Counted from the first letter of the stretch, positions 2,160-53,646 are shown. The stretch: DNA of 64,000 nucleotides from an uncultured delta proteobacterium (GCA_963709285.1 CAVPVR010000010.1:451570-515569); one strand, 5' to 3'. Numbers and translations are program-made. The notes: generated from the sequence alone by a model not told the origin.

Positions 2160-4742
<2,583 letters not shown>

Positions 4743-7635: not shown

Positions 7636-9720
7636 CTACCCTACCCGCACCCGGACATCCAAAGCCACCATACCCTCTTCCCCGGGAAAGACCCGCACCG
7701 GGTTCAAGTCCACTTCCTGTATCTGGGGGAAGCGCTCCATGAGATGGGACAGGGCCGACAGGGCCCGGCCGAGGGCCGCCAGGTCAGCGGCAGGCCTTCC
7801 CCGAGCGCCTTGCAGGATCAGGCCCATTTTCGTCTCCAGGATCTGGCGCTGGGCTTCCTGGGGGCTAATGGGGCCTACCCTGAGGGCCACGTCCTCCAAA
7901 ATCTCAGTCCACACCCCGCCGGCGCCAAAAGCAACCACTGCCCCAAAAGCCTGGTCCCGGCGAGCCCCCAGGAGCACCTCCTCGCCTGCGGCGGCCTGTT
8001 TCATAACCACCACCTGCCAGGGCTCCCCCGGCGGCACCTGCACCCGGGCGGTCTCGGCTAACGCGTGAAAAGCCTGGGCTGTGGCCTCTGCATCACCCAG
8101 ATTTAACACCACGCCCCCCACCTCGGTCTTGTGGACCAGGGAGGGGGCGGCAAGCTTCAGGACTACCGGATAGCCCAATTCAGAGGCGGCAGCCAGAACC
8201 TCCCCCTCATTGGCCGCCACCAGCCAGGCAGCCACAGGGATATCCACCGCCTCCAACAGGGTGAGGGCCTGGGGCATGGGTAAAAAGCCGTCCGCTGCCG
8301 CCGTAGTCAAGAGAGCGGCCAGGCGTTCTTCATCAAAACCAGGTTGATCAATCGACGGGTCATCCGCCGGGGGCCGCTGATAAAAGTCCCGGCTGTATGC
8401 CAGGCCACGCACCGCCTGGCCCGGAAAATGAAAAACCGGCACCCCCAGGTCTTCCCGGAAGTACTCTTCCTCCTCCAGGGTATAGCACACACTAATGGCC
8501 AAAGGCTTGCCTGCCGACCGGGAGGTGTTGACAAAGTGCTGGGCCATATCCCGGGCCTCGGCACGTTCCGGGTCATAGACCGGCCCATGGTTCAGGAGCA
8601 CAGCGTCCACCCCCGGGTCCTGGCAGAGATGGTCCATAACCCGGGAGTAGACCCCAAAGTCGAAAATATCCCCCAAATCAATGGGATTAGTGGGTTTGAT
8701 GATCTTGGAGCGGGAGCTTTTGTGGATGAAGTCGGTAATCTCCGGAGCCAGGGGAGGGAGCGTAAATCCCCAGCGTTTGCAGGCATAGGCCCCCACCACC
8801 GCCTCGCCGCCGCTGCGGGAGAGGATCACCAGGCGGTTCCCCTTGACCGGGGCTTGCCCCACCATCTTGGCGGCGATGAGGAAATCAGCCTGGCTCAGCA
8901 CCCGGGAGATGTTCCCCTGGCGACAGGCCGCCTCCACCACCTTTTCATCGGTGGCCAGAGAGGCCGTGTGCGACATGGCGATGCCGGAGGTCTCCGGTAC
9001 CACGTTGGCGATTTGTAAGAACATGGGCTTGCTGGCCCGCTTGGCCACCTCCAGGAGCCCCCGGCCATCTTCCAGGCCCTCGAGGTAGAGGTAGATCATC
9101 TCGGTGCCCGGGTCCTCCAGGAAATAGGCCAGGGCTTCGTTTTCTTGAACGTCCAGCTTGTTCCCCAGGCTCAGGAATTTATTCAGGCCCAGGCCCTCCT
9201 TGTGCATCCAGGCGACCACGTGCATGCCCACGCCGCCGCTTTGGGAAATAACCGAGATGCTGCCCCGCCGGGGCACGGGGGTGATCTGGGAAAACGGCAG
9301 AGACAGGCCGATCTCCATATTGATAACCCCCAGGCCGTTGGGTCCGATGAGCCTGAGGTTGTAGCGCTTAATGAGACCTTTGAGCTCTTCTTCCAGGGCC
9401 CTCCCCTGCTCCCCCAACTCCGAAAAGCCCCCTGACTCCACAACCACCCGGGTGATGCCTAACTCCCCGCAAGCCGCCACCACCTCGGGCACAAAGCGGG
9501 CCGGGGTGAGGATGGCGACCAGGTCCACGGGCTCAGGCAATTCCTGGAGGTGAGTATAAATGGGCTTGCCAAAGACCTCGCCGCCCCGCGGGCCCACCAG
9601 GAAAATTTTCCCCTGGTAGCCAGCCTCCATCATATTTAGGACAATGCCCCGGCCCAGGTTCAAAGGGTTTTCCGAGACACCTATCACTGCCACACTTTGA
9701 GGATAGTAGAATTTTTGCAT
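7636..9720 (-). CDS. ADP-forming acetyl-CoA synthetase / acetate--CoA ligase family (fused alpha and beta domains)
   Basis: CoA-binding N-terminus (VAVIGVSENP), a succinyl-CoA-synthetase-like flavodoxin domain and a C-terminal ATP-grasp domain. I chose the internal start MQKFYYP (ATG at 9720) over the ORF-track start at 9792. Confidence 0.85.
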   Translation of the reverse strand: MQKFYYPQSVAVIGVSENPLNLGRGIVLNMMEAGYQGKIFLVGPRGGEVFGKPIYTHLQELPEPVDLVAILTPARFVPEVVAACGELGITRVVVESGGFSELGEQGRALEEELKGLIKRYNLRLIGPNGLGVINMEIGLSLPFSQITPVPRRGSISVISQSGGVGMHVVAWMHKEGLGLNKFLSLGNKLDVQENEALAYFLEDPGTEMIYLYLEGLEDGRGLLEVAKRASKPMFLQIANVVPETSGIAMSHTASLATDEKVVEAACRQGNISRVLSQADFLIAAKMVGQAPVKGNRLVILSRSGGEAVVGAYACKRWGFTLPPLAPEITDFIHKSSRSKIIKPTNPIDLGDIFDFGVYSRVMDHLCQDPGVDAVLLNHGPVYDPERAEARDMAQHFVNTSRSAGKPLAISVCYTLEEEEYFREDLGVPVFHFPGQAVRGLAYSRDFYQRPPADDPSIDQPGFDEERLAALLTTAAADGFLPMPQALTLLEAVDIPVAAWLVAANEGEVLAAASELGYPVVLKLAAPSLVHKTEVGGVVLNLGDAEATAQAFHALAETARVQVPPGEPWQVVVMKQAAAGEEVLLGARRDQAFGAVVAFGAGGVWTEILEDVALRVGPISPQEAQRQILETKMGLILQGARGRPAADLAALGRALSALSHLMERFPQIQEVDLNPVRVFPGEEGMVALDVRVRVG

Positions 9721-10001
9721 CGTTTCTTCCTGTCTGATAAGAATTCTGAAAAAGCCAGGTAAAGGGAGGGAGTAAGGCCCGGGGACCTCCATCCCTCCCT
9801 CAATCTCTCAGGCCAAACCCTTGACGAAGTAATCCCGGGAACGTTTTCGACCCCGGGATTTTGACCAGGTTATGATATCACATTATTCCACTTCGGCAGG
9901 GAGAGAAAGGAAAAGAACCGGACCTCAAACCTTATTAACTTTTTCGCCGGGTAAGTAGTGCAGACCTGTAGTATAAAAACCTATCCCGAATACTGGCAGG
10001 C

Positions 10002-10646
10002 TTGGGACCCAAAAATCGCCCCGAAGAGGTGAACGTGCTCTACGAAAAGTGTGAGGAGGTAAATGAAGAATTCTGGCAGGAGCTCTCAGGGCTCCCCCCG
10101 GCGGAAGTGACCCGTCGCACCGGCGCTGCCTGGGTTGAAGGCTCCTACCGGCTCTCCTTTCTTGACCGCGTAGGCAAAATTGACCTGGCAAAACGCACTG
10201 TCCAGGTGGAGGGGTTCGAGTCCCGGGACCCTGGCTTCCGGCTCTGTCTCACCGCCCTCCTCTACCTTTCCCGGGTGGACCCCGCCTCGCTGGGGCCGCT
10301 GGTCAGTCCCCTGGAACTTACCGGTGGACCCACCTTTTTCATGGACCGGGGCCCCCACGCACTCCCCAATGCCCCTCTGGAGGAACGCTTTGGGCATGAC
10401 CTGACCGGATTCCTGAACGCGGGAGAGCTCCTGGGCGCGGAACGCCGGGCCGTCGGGGACGCCGCTCTGGCCTTTCAAGTTTTCCCGGGGCTGACGGTGG
10501 AAGTGATTCTCTGGCTGGCGGACGAGGAATTCCCCGCCCAGGTGTCCTTCCGGGTGCCCGGCTCCCTGGAGCGGGTCTGGCATTTGGACGCGGTCCTGGG
10601 ACTCCTGCAGCTCCTTGCCTGGGAAATCCTGGCCACCGCAGCTTAA
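10002..10646 (+). CDS. DUF3786-like protein
   Basis: 214-aa ORF. The pattern EE.W..L....P.EV..R.GA......Y.L.FL ... FF.G.H.LP recalls DUF3786 proteins from memory. The true start is probably the GTG at 10029 or 10035. Confidence 0.5.
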   Translation: MGPKNRPEEVNVLYEKCEEVNEEFWQELSGLPPAEVTRRTGAAWVEGSYRLSFLDRVGKIDLAKRTVQVEGFESRDPGFRLCLTALLYLSRVDPASLGPLVSPLELTGGPTFFMDRGPHALPNAPLEERFGHDLTGFLNAGELLGAERRAVGDAALAFQVFPGLTVEVILWLADEEFPAQVSFRVPGSLERVWHLDAVLGLLQLLAWEILATAA

Positions 10647-11099: not shown

Positions 11100-11489
11100 C
11101 TACAGCATTCCTTCCTGGATGAGCTTGCGCTGGTGGGCCTGGCGCATCTTGTCGAAAAGTTCGTCCAAGGGCACCGGCTTCATGACATAGTCGAAGGCGC
11201 CGAGCTGCATGGCCTGGGCACTTGACTCCACCGAAGCCTCCCCGGTGAGTATGATGACCTCAGTCAAGGGCTTTTTCTTTTTCAACGCTTTCAGGATTTC
11301 GATGCCGTCCAGACCTGGGAGGTGCTCTTCCAGGATCACCACGTCAAAGTCCTGGCTGTCCAACAGTTGCAGGGCCGCCTCACCATGGTCCACCGTGCTG
11401 ACCTCCAGGTCATGGTTTTTGAGGTGCTTCACTATGGTCTCCAGGAAGTCTTGGTCAGCATCCGCTACCAGCACTTTGAATGTTTTCAT
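11100..11489 (-). CDS. Stand-alone CheY-like receiver protein with Glu at the phospho-acceptor position
   Basis: 129 aa. Receiver landmarks are present (ADAD acidic pocket, ILTG Thr, VMKP Lys), but DVVILEEHLPGLDG aligns E where CheY has D57. Confidence 0.85.
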   Translation of the reverse strand: MKTFKVLVADADQDFLETIVKHLKNHDLEVSTVDHGEAALQLLDSQDFDVVILEEHLPGLDGIEILKALKKKKPLTEVIILTGEASVESSAQAMQLGAFDYVMKPVPLDELFDKMRQAHQRKLIQEGML

Positions 11490-11667: not shown

Positions 11668-12582
11668 ATGTCTGAAGAAGTGCTGGGCTCAGTGGTGGTG
11701 GTAGGAGGCGGCATTGCGGGCATGCAGGCTGCCCTCGATTTGGCCAACTCAGGATACTATGTTTACCTGGTGGAAAAAGGCCCCGCCATCGGCGGAACCA
11801 TGGCGCAGATTGACAAGACCTTTCCCACCAACGACTGCGCCATGTGAATTATTTCCCCCAAGCTGGTCGAGGTCGGCCGGCACACCAACATCGAACTCCA
11901 TACTCTGGCCCACGTCAGGGATGTTACCGGCAAGCCGGGGAATCTTGAAATTCTCATTGAAAAGCAAGCCCGCTTCGTGGACCCCGCCAAGTGCACGGGT
12001 TGCGGCACCTGCCTGGATGTCTGCCCCATCCGCTATGAGGTTCAGCTTCCGGACGAAACCAGGGCCCGGGCTGCCTTCTCCCAAGTAACGGACGAACAGG
12101 CGGTGACCGATATCATCGCCCGTCACCGGGACGAGCGGGGCAACCTGTTGCCCGTGCTGTTGGATGTCAACCGCCACTTCAACTGGCTCCCCCGCCCTGC
12201 CCTGGAGCAGGTTTCCGACGAACTCAAGCTGCCCCTGGCAGAAATCCTCCGGGTGGCCAGCTTTTACAATGCCTTTTCCCTGGTCCCCCGGGGCAAGCAC
12301 ATCATCAACGTTTGCATGGGCACAGGCTGTTTCGTCAAGGGCTCACCTCGCCTGTTGGACTCCCTGGAACGGGAACTCGGCCTCAAGCACGGCCAGACCA
12401 CGGAGGACATGCTCTTCACCCTGGAGGTGGTTCGCTGTATCGGCTGCTGCGCCCTGGCCCCGGCCATGCGGGTGGGGGAAGACACCTTCGGGCGTCTCAC
12501 CCCGAGCCTGATCCCCAAAATTCTCAAATCATACGCCGAGTCCTACGGCCGTGAAGATGCGGAGGAGGAAGCGGCGGGATGA
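11668..12582 (+). CDS. Selenoprotein fusion: HdrA N-terminal segment (about 130 aa) fused to a NuoE-type [2Fe-2S] thioredoxin-like domain
   Basis: Hand translation from the ATG at 11668 gives [17 protein letters not shown]...[14 protein letters not shown](11845-11847)-IISPKLVEV...[12 protein letters not shown]. It continues in the same frame (the ORF-track 11977..12582 frame) into NuoE motifs NVCMGTGC and [10 protein letters not shown]. The TGA replaces the Cys of the canonical HdrA NDC.MC motif. Its stop overlaps the next ATG (ATGA). Confidence 0.8.
11863..11880 (+). promoter_or_regulatory. Weak SECIS-like hairpin 15 nt after the UGA at 11845
   Basis: CUGGUC / GGCCGG 6-bp stem (two G-U pairs) with loop GAGGUC. 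It has the same 15-nt spacing as the two stronger hairpins in mvhD and mvhA. Confidence 0.3.
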
Positions 12583-14489
12583 AGGTCAGATCTCTGGAAC
12601 GACTGGCAGATATCAAAAAACAAGGCCTGGCTCTCACCTACCCTGACAAAGTCAAAATTATGGTGGGTATGGCCACCTGTGGTATCTCCGCCGGAGCTGA
12701 TAAGGTCTATGCTGCTTTAGAGGCCAAAATTGCGGAACTGGGCCTGGACGTGGCCTTGGAAAAGACCGGCTGCATCGGTTTCTGTCAGCGAGAACCCCTG
12801 GTAGATGTAGTGTATCCCAAGCAGGTGCGCCTCTCCTATCAGGGCATGACCCCGGAGAAAGCCGAGGGCCTGGTGGAAGCCTTGTGGAAGGGGGAAGTTT
12901 ACCCGGAAAACCTGCTGTGCCGCATCGACCAGGAGGACATATTGGTGGAAGGCCAGGTGCGGCCCTACGCCAACCCCCATCCCCCTACCCTAACGGTGGA
13001 GTTACCCCGGTATGATGAACTGCCCTTCTTCGGCAAGCAGGTGAAAATCGCGCTCCGCAACTGCGGCTTCATCCACCCGGAACGCATCGAAGAATACATC
13101 GCCCGGGGTGGCTATCAGGCCCTTCACCAAGTGCTTACCGGGATGACCCCGGAAGAGGTCATTGCGGAAGTCAAGTCCTCGGGCCTCAGAGGGCGGGGCG
13201 GCGCCGGCTTTCCCACCGGACTCAAGTGGGAGTTCGCCCGCAAAAATGACAGCGACGAGAAATATGTCATCTGCAACGCCGATGAAGGGGACCCCGGGGC
13301 CTTCATGGACCGGGGCATCCTGGAGGGCGACCCCCATGCGGTCATCGAGGGCATGGCCATCGGGGCCTATGCCATCGGCGCCCACGAAGGCTATGTCTAT
13401 TGCCGGGCGGAATATCCCCTGGCCGTTCACCGCCTGAAAATCGCCATCGACCAGGCAGAGGCCCTGGGACTTCTGGGCGATAAGATTTTCGGGACCAATT
13501 TCTCCCTCAAGCTGAAAATCCGTGAGGGCGCCGGCGCCTTCGTCTGTGGCGAGGAGACTTCTCTCATCGCCTCCATCGAGGGCAAAGTGGGCGAACCCCG
13601 CCCCCGGCCCCCCTTCCCGGCCCAAAGCGGTCTCTGGGGCAAGCCTACCATTATCAACAACGTCAAGACCTGGAGTCACATTGCTCCCATCGTCATGCGG
13701 GGCGCGGAGTGGTACGCCGGCTTCGGCACCGAAGGCAGCAAGGGCACCACGGTTTTCGCCCTGGTGGGCAAAGTCAACAACACCGGTCTCGTGGAAATTC
13801 CCCTGGGCATGACGCTTAGGGAAATGATCTTCGACATTGGCGGTGGCATCGCCGGAGGGCGGGAGTTCAAAGCGGTGCAGACCGGCGGCCCCAGCGGCGG
13901 CTGCATCCCGGAGGAGTTTCTGGACACCCCGGTGGACTATGAGTCCCTGGGGGCCCTGGGCTCCATTATGGGTTCTGGCGGCATGATCGTCATGGACGAA
14001 CGGGACTGCATGGTGGACGTGGCCAAGTACTTCATCGATTTCACCCAGGACGAGTCCTGCGGCAAATGCACCCCGTGCCGGGAAGGCACCCTCCGGCTCA
14101 TGGAAATGCTGGAGGCCGTCACCGCGGGCCAGGGTAGCGAGGAGGACCTCGACAAGCTGGCCCACATGAGCGAGTTAATCAAAAAGACCTCGCTCTGTGG
14201 CCTGGGCCAGACCGCGCCCAACCCGGTGCTGTCCACCATCCGTTACTTCCGGGACGAATATCTGGCCCATATCCGGGACGGCAAATGTCCGGCCAAAGTC
14301 TGTAAGCCTCTCATCACCTTCTCGGTTGTCGAAGAAAACTGCACGGGCTGCCAATTATGCCGCCTGAAATGCCCGGCCGAAGCGGTGGCGGGAGCCAAAA
14401 AAGAGGTGCACCACATCATTCAGGAAAACTGCATCAAGTGTGGCACCTGTTTCGAAGGCTGTAAATTCGACGCTATTGTGATTGAATAG
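12579..14489 (+). CDS. NuoF-like NAD(P)H-binding FMN/Fe-S flavoprotein (HydB/NuoF family with N-terminal thioredoxin-like and C-terminal 2x[4Fe-4S] domains)
   Basis: 636 aa. GLRGRGGAGFPTG, the ESCGKCTPCREG N3 cluster motif and two C..C..C...CP motifs at the C-terminus. Confidence 0.9.
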   Translation: MKVRSLERLADIKKQGLALTYPDKVKIMVGMATCGISAGADKVYAALEAKIAELGLDVALEKTGCIGFCQREPLVDVVYPKQVRLSYQGMTPEKAEGLVEALWKGEVYPENLLCRIDQEDILVEGQVRPYANPHPPTLTVELPRYDELPFFGKQVKIALRNCGFIHPERIEEYIARGGYQALHQVLTGMTPEEVIAEVKSSGLRGRGGAGFPTGLKWEFARKNDSDEKYVICNADEGDPGAFMDRGILEGDPHAVIEGMAIGAYAIGAHEGYVYCRAEYPLAVHRLKIAIDQAEALGLLGDKIFGTNFSLKLKIREGAGAFVCGEETSLIASIEGKVGEPRPRPPFPAQSGLWGKPTIINNVKTWSHIAPIVMRGAEWYAGFGTEGSKGTTVFALVGKVNNTGLVEIPLGMTLREMIFDIGGGIAGGREFKAVQTGGPSGGCIPEEFLDTPVDYESLGALGSIMGSGGMIVMDERDCMVDVAKYFIDFTQDESCGKCTPCREGTLRLMEMLEAVTAGQGSEEDLDKLAHMSELIKKTSLCGLGQTAPNPVLSTIRYFRDEYLAHIRDGKCPAKVCKPLITFSVVEENCTGCQLCRLKCPAEAVAGAKKEVHHIIQENCIKCGTCFEGCKFDAIVIE

Positions 14490-14537
14490 CTATAAGCTAT
14501 AAGCTTTAAGCCTTAAGCTTTAAGCAATAAGCTATTA
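14489..14537. repeat. 7-bp tandem repeat (GCTWTAA x7) starting in the nuoF-like stop codon
   Basis: Read directly: gctataa gctataa gctttaa gccttaa gctttaa gcaataa gctatta. Confidence 0.85.
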
Positions 14538-14610
14538 GAAAATGTAGGGCGCGTCGTCTCACGCGCCATCAATATGTGCTCAAAGCTCACAGCTCCAAAA
14601 GAAAGCCCCT

Positions 14611-17600
14611 ATGGTTACCTTAACAATCAATGACAAACCCATAGAAGTCCACGAGGGCACCACTGTATTGGCCGCGGCCCGGCAGTTGGGCGTCAACATC
14701 CCCACCCTCTGCCATCAGGAAGGCCTCAAACCTTATGGCGGTTGCCGCCTCTGCCTGGTGGAAGTGACCGCCGGTCCCCGTACCCAGCTCACTGCGTCCT
14801 GCACCTACCCCGTGGCCGAGGGCCTGGTAGTGCAGACCGACACGGAGGAGGTGCTGGCCGGCCGCCGCCTGGTCATGGATCTCCTCTTGTCCAGGTGTCC
14901 CGAGGTGCCGGCCCTGCAGGAGATGGCTCGGCAAGTGGGCCTCGAAGAGCCCAGCTTCGCCAAGGGGGAAAGTGACTGCATTTTGTGCGGCAAGTGTGTG
15001 CGCATGTGCTTTGAAGTCCAGGGGGTGGGCGCCATCAGCATGGTAAACCGGGGCGCCAAACGGCAAGTCGTCACTCCGTTCGGGGAGTTTTCCCAGGTGT
15101 GCCGCACCTGCGGGGCCTGCCAGTTCGTCTGCCCCACCGGCCACTTCACCGATATCGGCGGCATCAGTGGCAAAACCGCCATACCCCAAGGCGCTGAGTT
15201 TAACCAGGGCCTCAACAGCCGGGGCAACATCTTCCGCACGTATCCCCAGGCGGTGCCCAACACCCCCACCATCGACCGGGATAACTGCATCCATTTTTTG
15301 ACGGGGGACTGCGGCTTGTGCGCCGAAGCCTGCGCCGCTGAGGCCATCGACTATGAGCAACAGGAAGAAACTGTTACCCTCCAGGCCGGCAGCGTAATTT
15401 TGGCTCCGGGGTTCAAGCCCTATGACCCCACCGTTCTGATCGACTATGGCTACGGTGTCTACCCCAACGTTTACACCAGCCTCGAGTTTGAGCGCATCCT
15501 CTCTCCCGGGGGCCCCTTCGCCGGGCACATCCAGCGCCGCTCTGACGGCAAGGAGCCCCAGAAAATCGCCTGGCTCCAGTGTGTGGGCATGCGGAGCGAT
15601 AAGGAAGGGTATCATCCTTACTGTTCAGGGTTCTGCTGCATGGCCTCCCTCAAACAGGGCATGATTGCTAAAGAGCACCAGGGCACCGACCTGGACACCG
15701 CGGTTTTCTACATGGATATGCGCACGCCCCGCAAGGACTTCGAAAAATACTACGCCAGGGCCGAAGACCTGGGGGCTCGCCTCATCCGCTCCCGGGTGCA
15801 CTCCATTCACGAGGACGAGCAGACCCAAGACCTCAGCTTGCGCTACACCATGGAAAGTGGAGAGCTCAAAGAAGAAACCTTTGATATGGTGGTCCTGTCC
15901 GTGGGCGGAGTCATCACCCGGGATGTCATCGACTTGGCTCAAAAGCTCAAGGTGCGCCTGTCCCACAACCGCTTCATGGACACTGAGTGCTTTAAGCCGG
16001 TGACCACCTCTCGGCCGGGTATTTACTCCTGCGGCTTTTTCAACGGCCCCAAGGACATTCCCCAAACCGTGATGGAAGGGCAGCGCCGCCGCCATGGAGG
16101 CCTCCAAAGAATTGGCCATGGCCAAGGGCACCCTCATCCGGCAGAAGGAATTCCCCCCGGAACAGGACTTTTCCGGACCAGCCGGCCCGCATTGGGGTCT
16201 TTGTGTGCCACTGCGGTCTGAACATCGGGGGTACCGCCGATATTCCGGAAATTGTTGAGTATGCTCAGAACATCCCCAACGTGGAGTATGTCCAGGCCAA
16301 CCTCTTCTCCTGCTCCCAGGATGCCCAGGCCCAGATGGTGGAGATGATCAAGGAGCACGACCTCAACCGGGTGGTGGTGGCGGCCTGCAGTCCCTCCACG
16401 CACCAACCCATTTTTCAGGATATGCTCAGGAACGCCGGCCTCAACAAATACCTCTTTGAGATGGCCAATATCCGCAACCAGTGCACCTGGGTGCACCAGC
16501 ACAACCCGGAGATGGCCACCGACAAGTGCAAGGACCTGGTGCGCATGGCCGCGGCCAAGTCCGGTCTGCTGCAACCTCTAGACTACCTCTCCGTGCCGGT
16601 GAACAAAAAGGCTCTGGTCATCGGCGGCGGCGTCGCCGGCATGACCACTGCTCTGGGGCTGGCGGAACAGGGCTACGAAACGCATCTGGTGGAACGCAAA
16701 GACCGCCTGGGCGGCAATGCCTTGCGCCTGCACAGCACCTGGCGGGGCGGCCTGGTGGGCTGGCGGCTTGAGCGGCTCCTGGCCAACGTGACTCAGCCAT
16801 CCCCGCATCACCGTGCATTACAAGGCCATTGTCACCGGGGTTGAAGGGGTGGTGGGGAACTTCAAGACCAAGCTCAGCAGCGGCGCAGTCGTCAACCACG
16901 GCGTGGTGGTCCTCGCCACCGGCGCCGAGCCTTACCGTCCGGAGGGTCAGTTCCTTTACAAAAAGCACCCCAACGTGCTGCTGTCCCTGGATCTGGATCA
17001 GGAATTCATCAATGAAACCGACCGGCTGAAAGAAGCCCAGGCCTTCGCCTTCATCCAGTGCGTCGGCTCCCGGTCCCCGGAACGGCCGTATTGCATGAAG
17101 GTGTGCTGCTCCCACTCGGTGGAGAATGCCCTCAAGATCAAAGAACATGGACCCCGATAAAGACGTCTACGTCCTGTACCGGGATATGCGCACCTATGGC
17201 GAGCGGGAGATGTTGTATACCGCAGCCCGGGAAGCGGGCGTGATTTTCATCCGCTATCACCATGAGGACCCGCCCCACGTGGAGGAAGCGCCGGACGGCC
17301 GCATCAGGATCACGACGAAAGACCACATTCTGAATAGGCCGGTCACCTTCGACGTGGATGTCCTGACTCTGGCCACGGCCATCATTCCGCACCACAATGC
17401 GCCCCTGGCCGAACTCTACAAGATCCCCTTGAACGCCGAGGGCTTTTTCACTGAGGCCCACGCCAAGATCAAACCGGTGGACGCACCCACGGAAGGCATC
17501 TATCTGGCGGGGCTGTGCCACTATCCCAAGCCCCTCCAGGAGTCGGTGGCCGAGGCCCTGGCCACGCGCGGCCCGAGCCTCCACCATCCTGGCCCAGGAC

Positions 17601-17870
17601 ACCTTGTTGCTGGAGTCCACCATCTCCCGGCCCATCGACGAAAATTGCGACGGCTGCGCCTTCTGCGTGGACACCTGCCCCTTCCAGGCCATCACTCTCC
17701 TCGAGTACATGAGCGACGGCCATGTGAAAAAAACCGTGGAAGTGAGCGAGGTGCAGTGCAAAGGCTGCGGCTCGTGTATGGCCACCTGCCCCAAGCAGGG
17801 CATTGAAGTGTCGGGTTTCACCATGGAGCAACTCCAGGCCATGGTGGACGCAGCCCTGGAAGTGGCCTGA
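14611..17870 (+). pseudogene. hdrA: NuoG-N-like [2Fe-2S]/[4Fe-4S] ferredoxin domain fused to the remainder of HdrA; frame-disrupted about 5 times as given
   Basis: Residues 1-190 are a 2Fe-2S plus 4Fe-4S domain (CHQEGL.PYGGCRLC). From 15181 (IPQGAEFNQGLNSRGNIFRTYPQAVP) the sequence is colinear with HdrA. Homology continues through ORF-track pieces 16203..16844 (VFVCHCGLNIGG), 16813..17160, 17126..17806 and 17604..17870 (C-terminal 2x[4Fe-4S]). Frame changes occur near 16079, 16185, 16793, 17149 and 17563, each consistent with one extra base. Confidence 0.8.
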
Positions 17871-17923
17871 TGTTTTCTGTGGATAACCAAGCTTACTTGT
17901 GCTTAAATAGCAGGTCATGAACC

Positions 17924-18343
17924 ATGGAAGAACAGTTCGAACCGTTACTGATCGCCTTCCTCTGCAACTGGTGCTCCTATGCCGGTGCGGACCTGGCCGG
18001 AGTGTCGCGGATTCAGTACCCTGCCAACGGCCGCATCATCCGGGTGATGTGCTCCGGCATGGTGCACCCCAACCTGGTCATCAACGCCCTCACCAAAGGG
18101 GCGGACGGTGTCCTGATGTGCGGGTGACACCTGGGCGAATGTCATTACCTGGAAGGTAATGTCAAAGCACAAAGCCGGGCGGAAGGCATCGATCTCATGC
18201 TGGAGGACTTCGGGCTGGAGCCCGAGCGCTTCCGCCTCGAGTGGATCTCCTCCTCCGAAGCCCAAAAATTTGCGGACGTCATGACCGAGATGGTGGAGAC
18301 TTTGCGGGAGTTGGGTCCCAGTCCCTATAGCACCAGGTACTGA
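17924..18343 (+). CDS. mvhD: MvhD/FlpD-type hydrogenase delta subunit, selenoprotein
   Basis: LIAFLCNWCSYAGADLAG...GADGVLMCG-TGA(18125-18127)-HLGECHYLEGN...LEWISSSE. The TGA sits where MvhD has the Cys of GC..G.CHY. The frame stays open to the TGA at 18341-18343. Confidence 0.85.
18143..18161 (+). promoter_or_regulatory. SECIS-like hairpin 15 nt after the mvhD UGA
   Basis: Perfect 7-bp stem CAUUACC/GGUAAUG with loop UGGAA. Confidence 0.5.
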
Positions 18344-18387
18344 AGCTCGACACTAGTAAGATCGTTTCCCCTGAATCGGAAAACACC

Positions 18388-18582
18388 ATGGATATACCTT
18401 TGGCCCAGAAAATTGACGGCAAAAAGTTTCTGTGGGATAACGTCAACTATGAATCCCGGGAGGTAGCCCAAAAGGCCATGGAGGCCTATGAGCAGGAGGG
18501 CTTTGAAGTGGAGCTGATCGAAATCGAGGGTCAGTTCCTGGTTTACTCCCGGCGCCTGGCGGCCGTGCAATCAGCAGAATAA
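18388..18582 (+). CDS. Hypothetical 64-aa protein between mvhD and mvhG
   Basis: ORF-track ORF that fills the mvhD-mvhG gap on the same strand. No family recognised. Confidence 0.4.
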   Translation: MDIPLAQKIDGKKFLWDNVNYESREVAQKAMEAYEQEGFEVELIEIEGQFLVYSRRLAAVQSAE

Positions 18583-18612
18583 CCCCAACACCTACCATGA
18601 AGGAGGGAGGAG

Positions 18613-19560
18613 ATGGCGGTAAGAGTCGTGGAAGACTGGCTAAACGCCTGTTCGGGATGCGAGATTTCCATCCTCAACATCGGCGACCCGTTACTGGACA
18701 TTCTGCCCCTGCTCGAGTTTCACCACATGACCGCGCTGGTGGATCACAAGTTCTTCGGTCAGCTCGGAGATAAGACGGACATGGAGATCCCTGAGGCCGA
18801 CGTGGCCATTGTCTCCGGCGGGGTGCGGAATGAAGAGATGAAACACGAACTGGAGGAGATTCGCAAGAAAACCCAAATTCTCATAGCCCTGGGAAGCTGT
18901 GCCGCCTACGGGGGCATCCCCGCCCAGGCCAACATGTGGAAGAATGAAGACATCTTTGAAAAAGTCTTCCGCCACTGCGCTTCCACCGAACCCGGCCCGG
19001 ACCCCACTGATCCCAGTGTGCCGAAATGGACTCCCACCTGCATGGCGGTGGACGAGGTGGTCAAGGTGGACATCACCATCCCCGGCTGCCCGCCTCACCC
19101 GGACTGGATCGTGGACGCCCTCACCGCGGTGTTGGAAGGCAAGGCCGACTGGAAACTCCCTGAGCGCAGTGTCTGTGACACCTGCCCGGTGATCCGGGAG
19201 AAGAAATCTTCCGGCGGCTCGGTCAAGCGGGTGTTTGAAAATGCGGAATTCAATCCCGAGGAAGGCCTGGACAAGATGCGCTGCATTAACGAGCAGGGCA
19301 TCCTGTGCATGGGACCGGTGACCCTGGCGGGTTGCGCCGGCAAGGAAGGGGTGCCCCGCTGCGTGCAGGCCCGCACCCCCTGCCGGGGCTGTTTCGGGCC
19401 CATCCGCAAGGGGGCCAACCCCATGGTGGACATGATGGGTTCCCTTACCTCCGTGGGACTCGACGCCAAGACCCTGGTGGACCGCCGGGCTCTCATGAAC
19501 CGCTACATCGGCGGCCACGGCATGCTCAAGCCGCTACCGCCCCGCCCGGTGCGGAGATAA
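18613..19560 (+). CDS. mvhG: [NiFe]-hydrogenase small subunit, Mvh/F420-non-reducing type
   Basis: 315 aa. The N-terminus lacks a Tat signal (cytoplasmic type). Has the CSGCEISILN proximal cluster motif and further Cys clusters (GCPP, C..C, CRGC). Confidence 0.9.
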   Translation: MAVRVVEDWLNACSGCEISILNIGDPLLDILPLLEFHHMTALVDHKFFGQLGDKTDMEIPEADVAIVSGGVRNEEMKHELEEIRKKTQILIALGSCAAYGGIPAQANMWKNEDIFEKVFRHCASTEPGPDPTDPSVPKWTPTCMAVDEVVKVDITIPGCPPHPDWIVDALTAVLEGKADWKLPERSVCDTCPVIREKKSSGGSVKRVFENAEFNPEEGLDKMRCINEQGILCMGPVTLAGCAGKEGVPRCVQARTPCRGCFGPIRKGANPMVDMMGSLTSVGLDAKTLVDRRALMNRYIGGHGMLKPLPPRPVRR

Positions 19561-19572
19561 GGGGGTAAACCT

Positions 19573-21019
19573 ATGGGCAAAGTTATCAATATCCAGCCAG
19601 TGACCAGAATCGAAGGGCACGCCAAAGTGTCCATCTTCCTGGACGACGCCGGCAACGTCTCCGACACCAGGTTTTACGTCCAGACCTTACGGGGTTTCGA
19701 AAAGTTCTGCGAAGGCCGTCCGGCCGAAGAAATGCCCCGCATTGTCTGCCACATCTGCGGCATCTGCCCCTGGGCCCATCATCTGGCCTCCAGCAAGGCC
19801 ACGGATGCGCTGTTCGGGGTGACGCCGCCGCCGGCCGCGGTGAAGCTGCGCCGTCTCATGCAGTCCATCGCCTACGTCAGCGACAAGATCCTCCACTTCT
19901 TCTTCCTGGCCGCGCCGGACTTCGTCATCGGCCCCGACGCCGACTACTGCGGTGCGCAATGTCATCGGCATCGTCAAGGCCGCGCCGGACATCGCCAAGC
20001 AGGTGGTGCACTATCGGCACCTGGGGGCCAAGCTGCTGGAGGACTTCGCGGGTCGGGCCATTCACCCCACCTTCTCCTTGCCCGGCGGGGTGAGCAAGCC
20101 CATGACCGAGACCGAACGCCAGGCGATGCTCCCCGCGGCCAAAGAACTCCTGGAGTTCTCCAAGTTCACCATCAAGTTTGCCAAGGAAAACGTCTTCCCG
20201 AAGTACCTGGAGGCCATCGAAAAAATCGGCGTCATCAAGGTGGGCTATCTGGGCACGGTCACCGACGACGGCGCTCTGGACTTCTATGACGGCAAGCTTC
20301 GCCTCATGCAGCCCGACGGCGCCTTCGATGATTTCGCCTACGACCAGTACGTGGACTATATTGGGCGAGCATATCGAAGACTGGTCCTATCAGAAGTTCC
20401 CCTACGCCAAGAAGTGGGGCGGCTTCGCCCTGGACCTGGCCAACCCCCAGGGGGTCTACCGCACCAACACCCTGGCCCGGATCAACGTGGCCGACAAGAT
20501 GAAGACCCCCCTGGCCCAGGCCGAGCTCGAAGAGTTCCGGGAAAAGTTCGGGCGGCCGGCCCACTTGACCCTGCTCTATCATTACGCCCGCCTCATCGAG
20601 ATGGTCCAGTGCGCCGAGGAAGCGGTCATGCTCCTGGAAGACCCGGAGATCACCGACACCAACATCCGGGTGAAGATCGAACCCCGGGAAGCCAGGGGCG
20701 TGGGCTGTGTCGAAGCGCCCCGGGGCACCCTGATCCATGACTACACCATGGACAGCAATGGCGCTCATCACCAGCGTCAACCTGATTGTGGGCACCACCC
20801 ACAACAACGCCGCCATCAACCTCTCCGTCACCCAGGCGGCCCAGGAGTTAATCAAGGAAGGCACGTATGACCAGGGCATCCTCAACACGGTGGAAATGGC
20901 CATACGCGCCTACGACCCGTGACTGAGCTGCGCCACCCACCGCCTGGACGGCGGTGTTGCAGTCGAGAGTCACCATCCTGAACAACCAAGGCCAGGTGAT
21001 CGATAAGCTCAGCAACTAA
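19573..21019 (+). pseudogene. mvhA: [NiFeSe]-hydrogenase large subunit, Mvh type; frame-disrupted about 4 times as given
   Basis: N-terminal RIEGH and RICGICP motifs. Homology continues through ORF-track pieces 19952.., 20178.. and 20737.. . The C-terminal motif reads YDP-TGA(20920-20922)-LSCATH, the DPU..C..H NiFeSe signature. The tail VTILNNQGQVIDKLSN* needs one more shift near 20962. Other shifts lie near 19951, 20364 and 20762. Confidence 0.85.
20938..20956 (+). promoter_or_regulatory. SECIS-like hairpin 15 nt after the mvhA UGA
   Basis: Perfect 7-bp stem CACCGCC/GGCGGUG with loop UGGAC. It has the same geometry and UGGA loop start as the mvhD hairpin. Confidence 0.5.
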
Positions 21020-21245: not shown

Positions 21246-21773
21246 TTATTCCATCTCCAAACGCCGAACCTCATCATCTGCCGCCCAGTCAAGATTATAA
21301 ATACCCCGGCGCACGTACGTGTGGAAGCTGGAATAAGGCCAATCCGCCACCTTCGTGACGTGACCGTGCTTCACCGGATTGTAGTGGATGTATTCCACGT
21401 GACGCTCAAAATCATGCTCGTCCCGGATGACGTGTTCCCAAAAACGACGCTGCCAAATGCCTCGTTCCCCCTTCTGCCGGCGACGCGCTGAAAGCCTCTC
21501 CCCTCCGGGAATTTTGGCTGCAAATCGTGCTTTGATATCATGCCAGCGCGTTGAGAAATCCGCGTCCCCGGAAGGCAACGTCCAGATACAATGGAGGTGA
21601 TCGGGCAAAATGACGATGGCCTCGATAGTGAATGGTCGGCGTTGGCGGGCCGCCCTGAACGACGCCCGAAGATCGTCAATGTGTTCGGTCAAGAGTTTTC
21701 GATGGCGTTCCAGCAAGGCAACCGTGAAAAAGAACGTGCCTCCTGGAACAAAGGCGCGAAGGTATTGCGGCAT
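21246..21773 (-). CDS. REP-associated tyrosine transposase (RAYT, IS200/IS605-like Y1 transposase)
   Basis: 175 aa. Has the LPDHLHCIW HuH motif and a C-terminal YIHYNPVKHG catalytic Tyr region, and is flanked by REP units. Confidence 0.85.
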   Translation of the reverse strand: MPQYLRAFVPGGTFFFTVALLERHRKLLTEHIDDLRASFRAARQRRPFTIEAIVILPDHLHCIWTLPSGDADFSTRWHDIKARFAAKIPGGERLSARRRQKGERGIWQRRFWEHVIRDEHDFERHVEYIHYNPVKHGHVTKVADWPYSSFHTYVRRGIYNLDWAADDEVRRLEME

Positions 21774-23934: not shown

Positions 23935-25053
23935 TTACTGCACCAGCTTGGGGAGGCTGGCCCGCAGGGCCAGTTCGGAGCCGCCGGTGGGGATCCCCGT
24001 GTCGGTGCCGGGAGCCATGTAGCCGCCCCGGACCCAGCCTGAAACGGTTTTTTCCTTTTTATCTACCTCGATAATTTCGAAGGCCACAAAACCCTTCACC
24101 TCTCGCGACTGGTTGTAGGTCGTCGACCCGGGCACCACCGGCAGGATCACCGTCCAATCGCCGTTGTGCACGTTATAGAACTGCTGCTGCATATGCTTAA
24201 GCACCGAAGTGGCCACTCCGTTTTGCATCTGGATGTAGTCGCCGCACTTAATGCGCAGATCGTTGGGGTCGATATCCCCCCTGTCCCTCCAGTTGCCGTC
24301 GATCAGGTCTTCGAGGAGATCGGCGTTGCAATTATTGAGCTTAAACGCGTGCCAGCCACCGGTGTCCGAATGATCCGGGTTGAAGGTCACCCACATTTTT
24401 TCACCCACCGGCGGCACGTAGTTGTCGCCAACGGCAATGGGGAAGCCCCCACCCGGGCGCAGGTCCCGCACCCAGCCTAACAAGGCGGTGGCCTGGCCGG
24501 TAAGCTCCACGCTGTCGAGGCCCAAAAAACCGGCGAACCACAGGTTCACGGGGCCGTTCCAGGCGTTGCTGCGGCGGGTGGTCACCCGGACGGCATTGAG
24601 GGTGTAGGAGTTGGCGGCGTCGCAGGGCAGTTCCTGAAATTCCCAGGCGTTACTGGCGGCATTGTACTGCCAGACCCCCACCTGGACGTCTGCAGTGGAG
24701 ATCGAAAGTGGTTGGCCATCAGACTTGTTTTGCTGGACAACCTCCGTCGCCTTGAGATGGGCGTAAGCGCAGTTCAGCAGGTCTTTGGCATCCTGGGGTT
24801 GGGCGCCGTTGCCCAGCCAGTACAGGGACATGGCCCCGGCGTCGGCTCCGGCGTCGGCGGCGTTCTGGAGTTCCTGCCTGACCACATAAAGGTGGCCCAG
24901 GTCGATCACCAGCCCGGTAATGGCGAGGAGCATGAACATGGAAACCGCCACAAAAACCGCGGTGGCCCCTGATTCATCTCGGAATATAGGCTTCTTGAGG
25001 AAATTAGGGGCTTTCTTGCCTTTGCTGGGAAGGTTCAAGTTGTTCCTCATCAT
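23935..25053 (-). CDS. TadG-like (TadE/G N-terminal domain) pilus-associated protein, island copy
   Basis: 372 aa. The N-terminus GATAVFVAVSMFMLLAITGLVIDLGHLYVVRQELQNAADAGA fits the TadE/G-like pseudopilin-type leader. About 88 percent identical by eye to the ORF at 47351..48424. Confidence 0.75.
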   Translation of the reverse strand: MMRNNLNLPSKGKKAPNFLKKPIFRDESGATAVFVAVSMFMLLAITGLVIDLGHLYVVRQELQNAADAGADAGAMSLYWLGNGAQPQDAKDLLNCAYAHLKATEVVQQNKSDGQPLSISTADVQVGVWQYNAASNAWEFQELPCDAANSYTLNAVRVTTRRSNAWNGPVNLWFAGFLGLDSVELTGQATALLGWVRDLRPGGGFPIAVGDNYVPPVGEKMWVTFNPDHSDTGGWHAFKLNNCNADLLEDLIDGNWRDRGDIDPNDLRIKCGDYIQMQNGVATSVLKHMQQQFYNVHNGDWTVILPVVPGSTTYNQSREVKGFVAFEIIEVDKKEKTVSGWVRGGYMAPGTDTGIPTGGSELALRASLPKLVQ

Positions 25054-52248: not shown

Positions 52249-53646
52249 CTAATAGCGTTTGAAGCGAAGATCGCTAGCATCCGGCAGACTGAACAGATTG
52301 TCATCCAGGGGCACCCCAAAAATCTTGCAGCGGTCTGCAAACCGGGGCCGCACCCCAGTGGAGGTGAAGCGACCCACCACTCGCTGTTGATCATCCATGG
52401 AGTGCCGCTCATAAAGAAAGATGTCCTGCATGCTGATAACGCCACTCTCCATCCCGGTTATTTCCGACAACGAGATCATGCGGCGCACCCCGTCGCTATG
52501 TCGGGCCAGCTGCATGATAACGTCCAAAGACGAGCTGATCATCTGCCGCATGGCCTTTTCCGTGATCTTGAAGCCGGAAAGCTGCATCATGGTTTCCAGG
52601 CGCATCAGGGCGTCCCGGGCGGTGTTGGCGTGGATGGTAGTCATGGAGCCTTCGTGGCCGGTGTTCATGGCCTGGAACATGTCGATGACTTCAGCGCCCC
52701 GCACCTCACCCACAACGATGCGGTCCGGGCGCATACGGAGACTGTTGCGCACCAAATCCCGCTGGGTAATTTCACCTTTCCCTTCTACGTTAGGGGGCCG
52801 GGTCTCCAGGCGGGCGACGTGCTCCTGCTGAAGCTGTAGTTCCGCCGAGTCCTCGATCGTGATGATGCGCTCACGGTTCGGGATGAATCCCGAGAGGATA
52901 TTCAACAGAGTTGTCTTCCCAGCACCGGTGCCCCCGGAGATCAGGACGTTCATCTTGGCCATCACCATGGCCTTCAGTACCTCGCCGACCTCCGGAGTCA
53001 GGGAGCCTTTTTCAATAAGATCTTCAAGGGTAGGCCGCTGTACTGCAAAACGGCGAATAGACAGCATGGGCCCGTCCAGAGCCAAAGGCGGGATAATGGC
53101 ATTGACTCGGGAACCGTCCGGCAACCGGGCGTCCACCATAGGGGTGGCTTCGTCAATACGCCGGCCCACATTTGCCACAATCTTGTTAATTATCTTGAGA
53201 AGGTGGCTGTTGTCCTGGAACCTGATCTGGGTCTTTTCCAGTTTTCCCTGCCGCTCTATGTACACCTGGTCGAAGCGATTGGCCAGGATATCAGAGATGT
53301 TGGGATCTGTGAGAAGGGGTTCCAGGGGCCCCAGACCCAAGATCTCGAATTCAAGTTCTTGAACGAGGCGATTCTTCTCCTGGAGATTGATGGGCTCGGA
53401 CTCTTCCCGGAATAGTTGCTCCAAAGCCTGGCGCATTTCCCTCGCCACCACGATGTCATCCAGATTCTCCATCTGGCTCAAGTCCAGGCGCTCTAAGAGA
53501 AGGGTGTGAATCCGGCTTTTCACTTCATAGAGCTTGGCTTCCCTGTTTTCGTCTCCGCGAAAGGAAGTAAACAAAGCCACAGCCGCTCCCGGCTCCTGGT
53601 CCTTCACTTCCTGAAAAGTTCTCTTGCTGTATCGTCGAAAAGCCAT
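52249..53646 (-). CDS. cpaF: Tad pilus secretion ATPase CpaF/TadA
   Basis: 465 aa. Walker [10 protein letters not shown], Asp box, Walker [12 protein letters not shown] and His box of T2SS/T4SS E-type ATPases. Confidence 0.95.

Follow-up and report, generated by a model that had tools for sequence, protein, structure and literature searches.

Flavin-based electron bifurcation is the route by which many anaerobes obtain low-potential ferredoxin at the thermodynamic limit. Here we describe a gene cluster of an uncultured delta proteobacterium in which hdrA is cut open at an exact internal point and the gap is occupied by a NuoE-NuoF-[2Fe-2S] module. The cluster lies in 64,000 nucleotides of DNA (GCA_963709285.1, CAVPVR010000010.1:451570-515569; hereafter the window, meaning the whole stretch that was analysed). 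It is compact, occupies 11.6–21.0 kb of the window on the + strand, as do all of its genes, and consists of genes 1, 2 and 3, mvhD, a 64-codon open reading frame (ORF), mvhG and mvhA. A first-pass annotation made from the sequence alone had proposed the interrupted hdrA, and all of its coordinates hold, with PDB alignments, Pfam and the NCBIfam HdrA2 profile in agreement. We hold the gene architecture described below with high confidence, and it is quite likely that the products of the cluster form a single complex. The best overall explanation, which we consider rather probable, is that this complex carries a Bfu-type nicotinamide adenine dinucleotide (NAD(H))/ferredoxin module that is wired into the ferredoxin-domain arm of HdrA and coupled to a [NiFeSe] hydrogenase. 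That it catalyzes an H2/NAD/ferredoxin reaction is a tentative proposal that we would put at somewhat below even chances.

Gene 1 (11668..12582, 304 amino acids) begins as HdrA and ends as a NuoE/HydC/BfuC-like [2Fe-2S] protein. Its HdrA-N fragment (residues 1–130, 11668..12057) contains the GxGxxG motif that binds flavin adenine dinucleotide (FAD), an in-frame TGA, a stretch beginning IISPKL and a single Cys motif (CxxCxxCxxxCP), and is followed after about 15 residues by a NuoE-type thioredoxin-like domain. In a PDB search, residues 8–123 aligned with HdrA of the solved Mvh-Hdr complexes, namely with 8RVU 153–268 (E 1.5e-44) and with 5ODC 146–259 in Methanothermococcus numbering, the E values for the fragment ranging from 1.5e-44 to 3.9e-41. 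Residues 137–289 (12076..12534) matched HydC of the electron-bifurcating NiFe-HydABCSL from end to end (7T2R_C 3–155, E 7e-43), and Pfam placed 2Fe-2S_thioredx at 147–289. The first part of gene 1 is therefore HdrA-like and continues in frame into a NuoE-type domain, just as had been suggested. Residues 137–289 also possess the single [2Fe-2S] site and the N-terminal helical bundle by which BfuC is recognized, with the difference that BfuC is here fused to HdrA-N. In 19 gene 1 homologues, both the CP(I/V)Rx(E/Q)xQxP motif at the junction and all four [2Fe-2S] cysteines are conserved.

The missing part of HdrA is found in gene 3 (14611..17870), which encodes 1084 amino acids once five single-base insertions are removed. 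Its NuoG-N/BfuA-like module (residues 1–185, 14611..15165) was recognized by Pfam as Fer2_4 and Fer4_Nqo3; residues 1–180 comprise Fer2_4 and two [4Fe-4S] motifs, and their best match is the 247-residue BfuA-like chain 9MQX_A (8–184). The Cys motifs of this part, read from the frame-corrected translation, are two CxxCxxCxxxC without HxxxCxxCxxxxxC, which is the type 2 BfuA pattern (clusters A1, A2 and A4 only), in this case in a BfuA fused to HdrA-C. Behind this domain HdrA resumes at base 15181, which is residue 191, and residues 191–445 correspond to 5ODC HdrA 258–506 (E 5e-57). The remainder of this first HdrA module extends to about residue 520 (15181..16170) and is followed by a second HdrA-like module (16176..17870). 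The first-pass annotation was correct about the start of the ORF at 14611 and its HdrA content; the frame, however, is broken by the five insertions and continues into the second module. Domain scans of the three products found 2Fe-2S_thioredx, the NuoF-type domains and Fer2_4 in Pfam, and HdrA was identified by alignment to PDB and NCBIfam, where neither gene 1 nor gene 3 attains the cut-off of any model.

The two HdrA pieces complement each other to within a few residues, with neither loss nor duplication, because their positions adjoin both in PDB structures and in the HdrA2 profile. Gene 1 residues 8–123 and gene 3 residues 191–445 jointly cover 5ODC 146–506, and in the HdrA2 profile gene 1 occupies positions 138–265 and a gene 3 homologue positions 259–562. 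The thioredoxin reductase-like FAD domain is thus complete only when both polypeptides are considered. The cut falls just past the first Cys motif of the ferredoxin domain that is inserted in HdrA, so that this motif (C109/112/115/119) remains in gene 1 and the second (C-x7-C-x2-C-x3-C) lies in gene 3. All eight cysteines for two [4Fe-4S] clusters are present but divided between the two chains. The covalent joints attach the cassette to the two halves of this domain, and it was rightly proposed that the break lies inside it, with both broken ends covalently joined to NuoE-type and NuoG-N-type modules.

Module 1 carries the signature of a bifurcating HdrA. Its residues E294 and K348 correspond to E356 and K409 of HdrA, and Glu356 and Lys409 next to the FAD are the criterion for a bifurcating HdrA in the part of Appel et al. 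2021 that is quoted in PMC9430772. Module 2 has D/Q and E837 at these positions. The cluster site formed by C386/C399/C403/C404 in HdrA appears in gene 3 as CVG...YCSGFCC (Cx12CxxxCC). Module 2 is a second complete HdrA-like module (residues ~525–1081, aligned with 5ODC 4–235 and 393–646) that retains the HdrA N-terminal domain, a second FAD domain and the C-terminal ferredoxin domain with its two [4Fe-4S] motifs, and is devoid of the inserted ferredoxin domain and of the E/K signature.

Between these two genes lies gene 2 (12579..14489, 636 amino acids), the NuoF-like gene that had been noted next to gene 1, and its start overlaps the stop codon of gene 1 (ATGA). Its product aligned over its full length with NiFe-HydB (7T2R_B residues 8–594, 809 bits), and the aligned region takes in CPAKxC as well as the two C-terminal Cys motifs. 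A thioredoxin-like domain, the CPAKxC stretch and a C-terminal 2x[4Fe-4S] domain separate a bifurcating BfuB from plain NuoF (PMC9304861). According to Pfam and the 7T2R_B alignment, gene 2 has all of the features that define BfuB in that study: an N-terminal [2Fe-2S] thioredoxin-like domain, a site for flavin mononucleotide (FMN) and NADH, NADH_4Fe-4S, CPAKxC and the C-terminal 2x[4Fe-4S] domain. As predicted from this alignment, gene 2 is a bifurcating-type NuoF/HydB (BfuB). The earlier description of the inserted parts as NADH-dehydrogenase-type modules is hence right about their kinship with NuoE, NuoF and NuoG-N, but the insert is a bifurcating-type Bfu module and not a plain NADH dehydrogenase. 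The suggestion that an NAD(H) site is wired directly onto the bifurcating flavin of HdrA is not supported in that form. NAD(H) would bind at the NuoF-like FMN of gene 2, and the NADH site would be linked to the HdrA flavin via a chain of iron-sulfur (Fe-S) clusters, with at least 5–6 clusters between FMN and FAD by homology.

Three in-frame TGA codons occur in the cluster: at 11845–11847 in gene 1 (HdrA Cys197), at 18125–18127 in mvhD (CGC motif) and at 20920–20922 in the hydrogenase gene mvhA (L2 motif, DPCxxC). In all three genes the TGA corresponds to a cysteine that is catalytic or cluster-proximal. The gene 1 codon is the second Cys of DCxxC, so that the redox-active C194-x-x-C197 site becomes DCAM-U, with a predicted selenocysteine at position 197; the C.MC motif read here in the first-pass annotation has to be corrected accordingly. 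This column is an invariant Cys in Cys-type homologues, and close relatives of gene 1 have TGA at the same codon, their gene calls being split into 59 and ~202–220 amino acids. A conserved hairpin lies 17 nucleotides past the gene 1 TGA and a stable hairpin lies downstream of the mvhD TGA (z −1.96); when folded as selenocysteine insertion sequences, these conserved hairpins gave energy z-scores of only −1.1 and −2.0, which are not significant. The gene 1 TGA is probably read as selenocysteine, and the cluster probably encodes three selenoproteins. Gene callers split or truncate the selenoprotein genes of this cluster in related contigs and label the gene 1 fusion simply "NuoE".

The genes directly downstream of gene 3 are mvhD, mvhG and mvhA, both here and in loci L001–L003, and mvh genes adjoin the cluster in at least 5 further loci of the split type. 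The mvhD gene (17924..18343; FlpD family, Pfam FlpD) encodes a short MvhD of ~140 amino acids with the putative selenocysteine in CG-U-HLGECHY. Between mvhD and mvhG, a 64-codon ORF (18388..18582) without cysteines gave no Pfam match; it has homologues in the same place in L001 (16696–16890), L006, L007 and L011. The small subunit is encoded by an mvhG/vhuG-like gene (18613..19560; NCBIfam VhuG 6.8e-61; Pfam Oxidored_q6 on the L001 orthologue) and the large subunit by an mvhA/vhuA-like gene (19573..21019) with four single-base insertions and the third TGA in AYDP-U-LSCATH. VhuA and VhuG were the best NCBIfam matches for the large and small subunits, both below cut-off, and the mvhA orthologue of L001 matched VhuA at 1.7e-140. 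After frame correction mvhA contains the L1 and L2 motifs of group 3c, given as ICGxCxxxH and AYDPCxxCATH in PMC6085437, and the small subunit and MvhD are present. Judged by these motifs, the cluster holds a group 3c (Mvh/Vhu-type) [NiFeSe] hydrogenase. The predicted selenocysteine codons, the second HdrA module, the hydrogenase genes and the nine single-base insertions had all escaped the first-pass annotation, and the first three of these change the likely role of the complex.

The fusion is not restricted to this organism. Among 5.8 billion proteins searched, there were dozens of HdrA-N::NuoE fusions of full length (~300 amino acids) at 50–75% identity, together with fragments truncated at the selenocysteine at 83–92%. 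Two proteins (P0123 and P0124, 418–436 amino acids) carry the canonical HdrA N-terminal domain ahead of HdrA-N::NuoE, and therefore a canonical-type HdrA has also been cut at the same point. In a search for this architecture and its synteny, fusions with the same junctions were found in ~22 loci of independent assemblies, assigned to Desulfobacterota, Acidobacteriota, Spirochaetota, Planctomycetota, Bacillota, Chloroflexota, Cloacimonadota, Myxococcales and three archaeal lineages, so that at least 8 phyla are represented. From a scan of one genome per species, the bacterial metagenome-assembled genomes (MAGs) bearing the fusion were labelled Eubacteriales, delta proteobacteria/Desulfobacterales, Spirochaetes, Candidatus Sulfotelmatobacter and other Acidobacteria, Myxococcales, Planctomycetota, Dehalococcoidia and Cloacimonadota, and the archaea Altiarchaeales, Thermoplasmata and LFW-68_2. 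The whole cluster is present in L001–L003 and L006, and L004 has a Cys version without hydrogenase genes; gene 3 is intact in all five (1081–1084 amino acids, with 1084 in L001–L003 and L006). In L007 (9316–12408), L014 (8938–12111) and L022 (9305–12376) the NuoF-like ORF is extended to ~1020–1060 codons.

This recurrence bears on whether the split is real and whether the locus is functional. Were the split a product of chimeric assembly or faulty gene calling, HdrA and the NuoEFG-like genes should actually exist apart, each of them intact. Beyond the draft quality of the sequence with its local errors, nothing was found that speaks for this, and it is contradicted by two junctions of conserved sequence in the ~22 independent assemblies from many studies and phyla, by ~8 full-length representatives of the fusion in a library clustered at 50% identity, and by HdrA pieces that fit together with neither overlap nor loss. 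Judging from these comparisons, a chimera is extremely improbable and is excluded for practical purposes. Of the two findings that the first-pass annotation had named as fatal to its proposal, the other, HdrA pieces that are not HdrA-like, was likewise not borne out. A second possibility is that the cluster is an inactivated remnant in this organism, with gene 3 and mvhA as pseudogenes. Compared with intact homologues of 1084 amino acids, gene 3 has five +1 insertions (at ~16076, 16178, 16788, 17148 and 17566), and mvhA has four (19949, 20360, 20763 and 20964); the calls were made by comparison with orthologues that are 80–85% identical in DNA. The nine frameshifts weigh against a working complex, and their confinement to 16076–20964, with genes 1 and 2, mvhD, mvhG and the other window genes examined intact, is what one might expect if two genes had been inactivated. 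On the other hand, the orthologues at 80–85% DNA identity are intact, and each of the nine changes is a +1 insertion confined to this window, none in a long homopolymer, with no deletions and no premature stop substitutions. Measured against L006, gene 3 also has the same dN/dS (0.10) ahead of the first frameshift as behind it, a sign of purifying selection that has not been relaxed. The pattern fits local consensus errors of the assembly, which the simplest reading of the sequence suggests as the source of all nine, and we regard a genuinely inactivated locus as improbable.

Comparison of gene order also suggests how the split arose. The same parts occur in four arrangements among the 86 loci onto which the modules of the window were mapped. 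In the first, an unsplit tandem HdrA is followed by mvhD (Desulfosudis, Desulfoluna and Methanosarcina) and reads through the break point (...CPKKIVDTYNSGL...); examples such as L032, L034 and L069 are collinear across it. In the second, HdrL-type arrangement, a GltD-like NAD(P)H domain of ~480 amino acids (Fer4_20 + Pyr_redox_2) separates the two Cys motifs in the inserted ferredoxin domain, ~25–30 residues downstream of the break in the window (L029, L030 and L070). The third is the split type of the window. The fourth is Bam-like, with a tandem HdrA, mvhD and then separate nuoE-, nuoF- and nuoG-N-like genes (L068, L078 and L086). The solid case for an exchange is a pair of acidobacterial loci, the split-type L015 and the HdrL-type L070, which are collinear and 83–91% identical in DNA on either side of the cassette, where the flanks take in mvhA upstream and mvhD downstream. 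Their sole difference is a clean cassette exchange, a 3.2-kb NuoE-F-G-N cassette in L015 (8323–11523) against a 1.55-kb GltD-like cassette in L070 (3850–5406). Together with the collinear unsplit genes, this pair bears out the suggestion of a domain insertion or gene fission at one precise point. In a neighbour-joining tree of the HdrA-C and module 2 region, split, unsplit and HdrL forms are interleaved, which, in so crude a distance tree, is a hint of repeated gain or exchange of cassettes. Because of the L015/L070 swap and the interleaved tree, the inserted ferredoxin domain appears to act as a socket into which NAD(P)H-handling modules can be plugged, and in function both kinds of cassette look interchangeable. 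Gene 3 was also considered as an HdrL and rejected, as Pfam found the GltD-like insert absent from genes 1–3.

In the complex that we propose, the core would be a BamE-like tandem HdrA, in which module 1 bears the bifurcating-flavin signature (Glu/Lys and C-x-x-Sec) and module 2 is non-bifurcating and probably structural. A three-part cassette (BfuC, BfuB and a short BfuA) is set in frame into the loop past the first Cys motif of the module 1 ferredoxin domain. Two polypeptides would then build module 1, with one FAD domain and with the two [4Fe-4S] clusters of the ferredoxin domain bound at the interface of the chains. The Bfu module is tethered on both sides, by linkers of ~10–20 residues, to the ferredoxin arm of the HdrA flavin, and the distal [4Fe-4S] cluster of the BfuA-like part may exchange electrons with the split ferredoxin domain. 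MvhD, with its predicted selenocysteine, and the Vhu-type [NiFeSe] hydrogenase would dock on HdrA as in Mvh-Hdr complexes. This soluble complex may link H2/H+ in a reversible manner to NAD(H) and ferredoxin, the direction being as conjectural as the reaction itself, and it may have two bifurcation sites that work one after the other, like class II benzoyl-CoA reductase. In favour of this proposal, E294 and K348 are found only in module 1, which is the same pattern as Lys280 at the bifurcating FAD of BamE versus Gln768 at the non-bifurcating FAD.

Several observations besides the frameshifts weigh against this proposal, and some of them favour a different division of labour. There is no HdrB/HdrC-like partner (a CCG-domain or HdrC-like ORF) in the 64-kb window, and the high-potential third branch of a canonical HdrA flavin is therefore without an obvious acceptor there. 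Most split-type loci are without hydrogenase genes, and their neighbours include HdrC-like genes (12 of 21), HdrB-like CCG proteins (5 loci), MetF/MetV (3–4) and FrhB-like genes (4). Since partner genes vary in this way, H2 is just one of several possible partners. Moreover, class II benzoyl-CoA reductase passes electrons from the BfuA-like BamI to the C-terminal ferredoxin domain and the MvhD-like BamF, its low-potential exit being the inserted ferredoxin domain (bioRxiv 10.64898/2026.04.10.717634), so that the wiring proposed here is unlike that enzyme. One may instead suppose that the conserved unit of genes 1–3 and MvhD forms a general NADH/ferredoxin-linked HdrA engine for which the hydrogenase is one exchangeable donor and the output is a high-potential acceptor, reached through an HdrBC-like, HdrC-membrane or MetFV partner encoded elsewhere in this genome. 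The HdrC-like genes counted above lie directly upstream of gene 1, some of them fused to a NarI-like membrane domain, and module 1 retains Cx12CxxxCC, the cluster through which HdrC is reached in 5ODC. The HdrL-type HdrA of Moorella thermoacetica, furthermore, works with HdrBC-MetFV (PMC9430772). However, no HdrB/C, MetF or MetV gene occurs in the 64-kb window, and the closest relatives, L001–L003, are flanked by Mvh genes only. We consider such an engine the less likely of the two but give it considerable weight, and prefer the hydrogenase-coupled complex.

A close parallel is the BamDEFGHI part of the class II benzoyl-CoA reductase of Geobacter metallireducens ("Bam-Bfu"). Its BamE was described from a cryo-EM (cryo-electron microscopy) structure as a "fused HdrA dimer", in which one FAD is bifurcating (Lys280) and the other non-bifurcating (Gln768) (bioRxiv 10.64898/2026.04.10.717634). 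Both systems have a tandem HdrA with the bifurcating signature in the first FAD domain only, an MvhD-like selenoprotein adaptor, and a HydBC/Bfu-type NuoE/NuoF/NuoG-N module in the same enzyme, so that two bifurcation-type modules are combined. In Bam, however, BamG, BamH and BamI are separate proteins encoded past bamE-bamF, and BamI feeds the C-terminal ferredoxin domain of BamE, whereas in the window the parts are fused, the cassette lies inside hdrA and the module is spliced into the inserted ferredoxin domain, cutting HdrA in two. The window also differs in its short MvhD and attached [NiFeSe] hydrogenase, and no BamB/BamC tungsten subunits or HdrD-like BamD were found among the window ORFs examined. 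HdrL, described in Desulfobacterium autotrophicum, and the M. thermoacetica HdrA of the same type, which oxidizes NADH (PMC9430772), likewise have an NAD(P)H module interrupting the inserted ferredoxin domain of tandem HdrA module 1, with mvhD following. They are single polypeptides whose Fer4_20 + Pyr_redox_2 insert sits just ahead of the second Cys motif, in contrast to the window, where the insert has three modules with a whole separate gene and a ferredoxin-reactive BfuB domain, and the host gene is split.

The MvhAGD-HdrABC complex of hydrogenotrophic methanogens (5ODC and 8RVU) resembles the window in the HdrA FAD domain, C-x-x-C(Sec)197, E356/K409, the inserted ferredoxin domain, MvhD and a group 3c Mvh/Vhu-type hydrogenase with L1 and L2 motifs. 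It differs in having HdrB and HdrC; in the window, moreover, HdrA is a fused pseudo-dimer instead of a homodimer, module 1 is in two pieces and a covalently attached Bfu module occupies the ferredoxin-docking domain. NiFe-HydABCSL of Acetomicrobium mobile, whose chains B and C are the best matches of gene 2 and the NuoE-like part, also combines a [NiFe] hydrogenase with a BfuBC core. There, the SL subunits of the hydrogenase dock on a long BfuA (type 3), whereas in the window a short type 2 BfuA is fused to HdrA and the Mvh-type hydrogenase would reach the core only via MvhD and HdrA. Mvh-Hdr, the Bfu family, BamE-I, HdrL/Moorella HdrA and their pairwise combinations are known already. In its main text, the 2022 Bfu classification has Bam-Bfu as the only HdrA-linked type and no other Hdr/Mvh-linked type, and an archaeal survey of fusions and fissions reported only HdrA duplications and MvhD fusions. 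In the literature searched we could not find described an HdrA split by NuoE/F/G-N, i.e. cut inside the inserted ferredoxin domain and holding a BfuC-BfuB-BfuA cassette between its two parts; the key review of Appel et al. 2021 lies outside that search, and a prior mention is possible.

Other genes of the window and of related loci are noted here for completeness. Directly upstream of the cluster are a DUF3786 protein gene (10002–10646, +) and a lone response-regulator receiver gene (11100–11489, −), and further upstream an ADP-forming acetyl-CoA synthetase-type gene (7636–9792, −) and clpB (2160–4742). The ClpB of the window is 90–93% identical to MAG proteins labelled Syntrophobacterales, Desulfobaccales or Desulfobacca, one of which is encoded on the contig of L001. 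Directly past the hydrogenase genes is an ORF of 175 amino acids (21246–21773, −), which presumably resembles REP-associated/IS200-like tyrosine transposases; Pfam gave no match at 1e-5 to confirm this. The stretch that follows (21.8–22.9 kb) is without a convincing gene. Tad/Flp pilus genes, unrelated to the split HdrA, lie at ~23.9–25.1 kb and 48.5–54.9 kb and comprise a TadE/G-like gene (23935–25053), a TPR protein, two TadB/C-like T2SSF genes and a CpaF-like ATPase (52249–53646). In L008 and L010 (~11.0–13.9 kb), several extra ORFs stand between nuoF and gene 3, which by eye we take to be like the CBS, histidine-kinase-like ATPase, DRTGG and PHP proteins of [FeFe]-hydrogenase operons; the family counts over all loci were 10 for HATPase_c and 3 for CBS. 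One protein, P0139 (843 amino acids), appears by eye to be a NuoG-N::GltD-like::NuoE triple fusion.

A 2026 cryo-EM preprint on class II benzoyl-CoA reductase considered two distinct bifurcation modules in one complex to be previously unreported. Our results suggest that this combination is not a one-off and that it recurs across bacteria and archaea, more tightly integrated and with hydrogenase, HdrBC-like, membrane or methylene-tetrahydrofolate reductase partners. The split HdrA would thereby generalize the principle of two bifurcation modules in one enzyme, and structural and enzymatic predictions follow from it, including a ferredoxin domain assembled from two chains and a short cluster-to-cluster distance to BfuA. 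The loop past the first Cys motif of the inserted ferredoxin domain may be a natural plug-in site for NAD(P)H modules, and the split offers an explanation for the intake of NAD(P)H by HdrL-type and Moorella-type enzymes. More speculatively, and with rather less confidence than we attach to the complex itself, these proteins may represent an uncharacterised class of hybrid enzymes, in which the genes of two different bifurcation machineries are interleaved, a Bfu FMN/Fe-S core is built into the arm of a bifurcating HdrA flavin on which ferredoxin docks, cassettes are swapped at one hot spot and, in this organism, the result is a tandem-bifurcating [NiFeSe] hydrogenase. If this is true, electrons of the low-potential branch of HdrA would pass straight into or from a second bifurcation site without free ferredoxin, and GltD-like or NuoE-F-G-N-like NAD(P)H-input cassettes would re-plumb the enzyme at one site. 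The [NiFeSe] hydrogenase of this organism would then be of a new kind, connecting H2 with both NAD(H) and ferredoxin.

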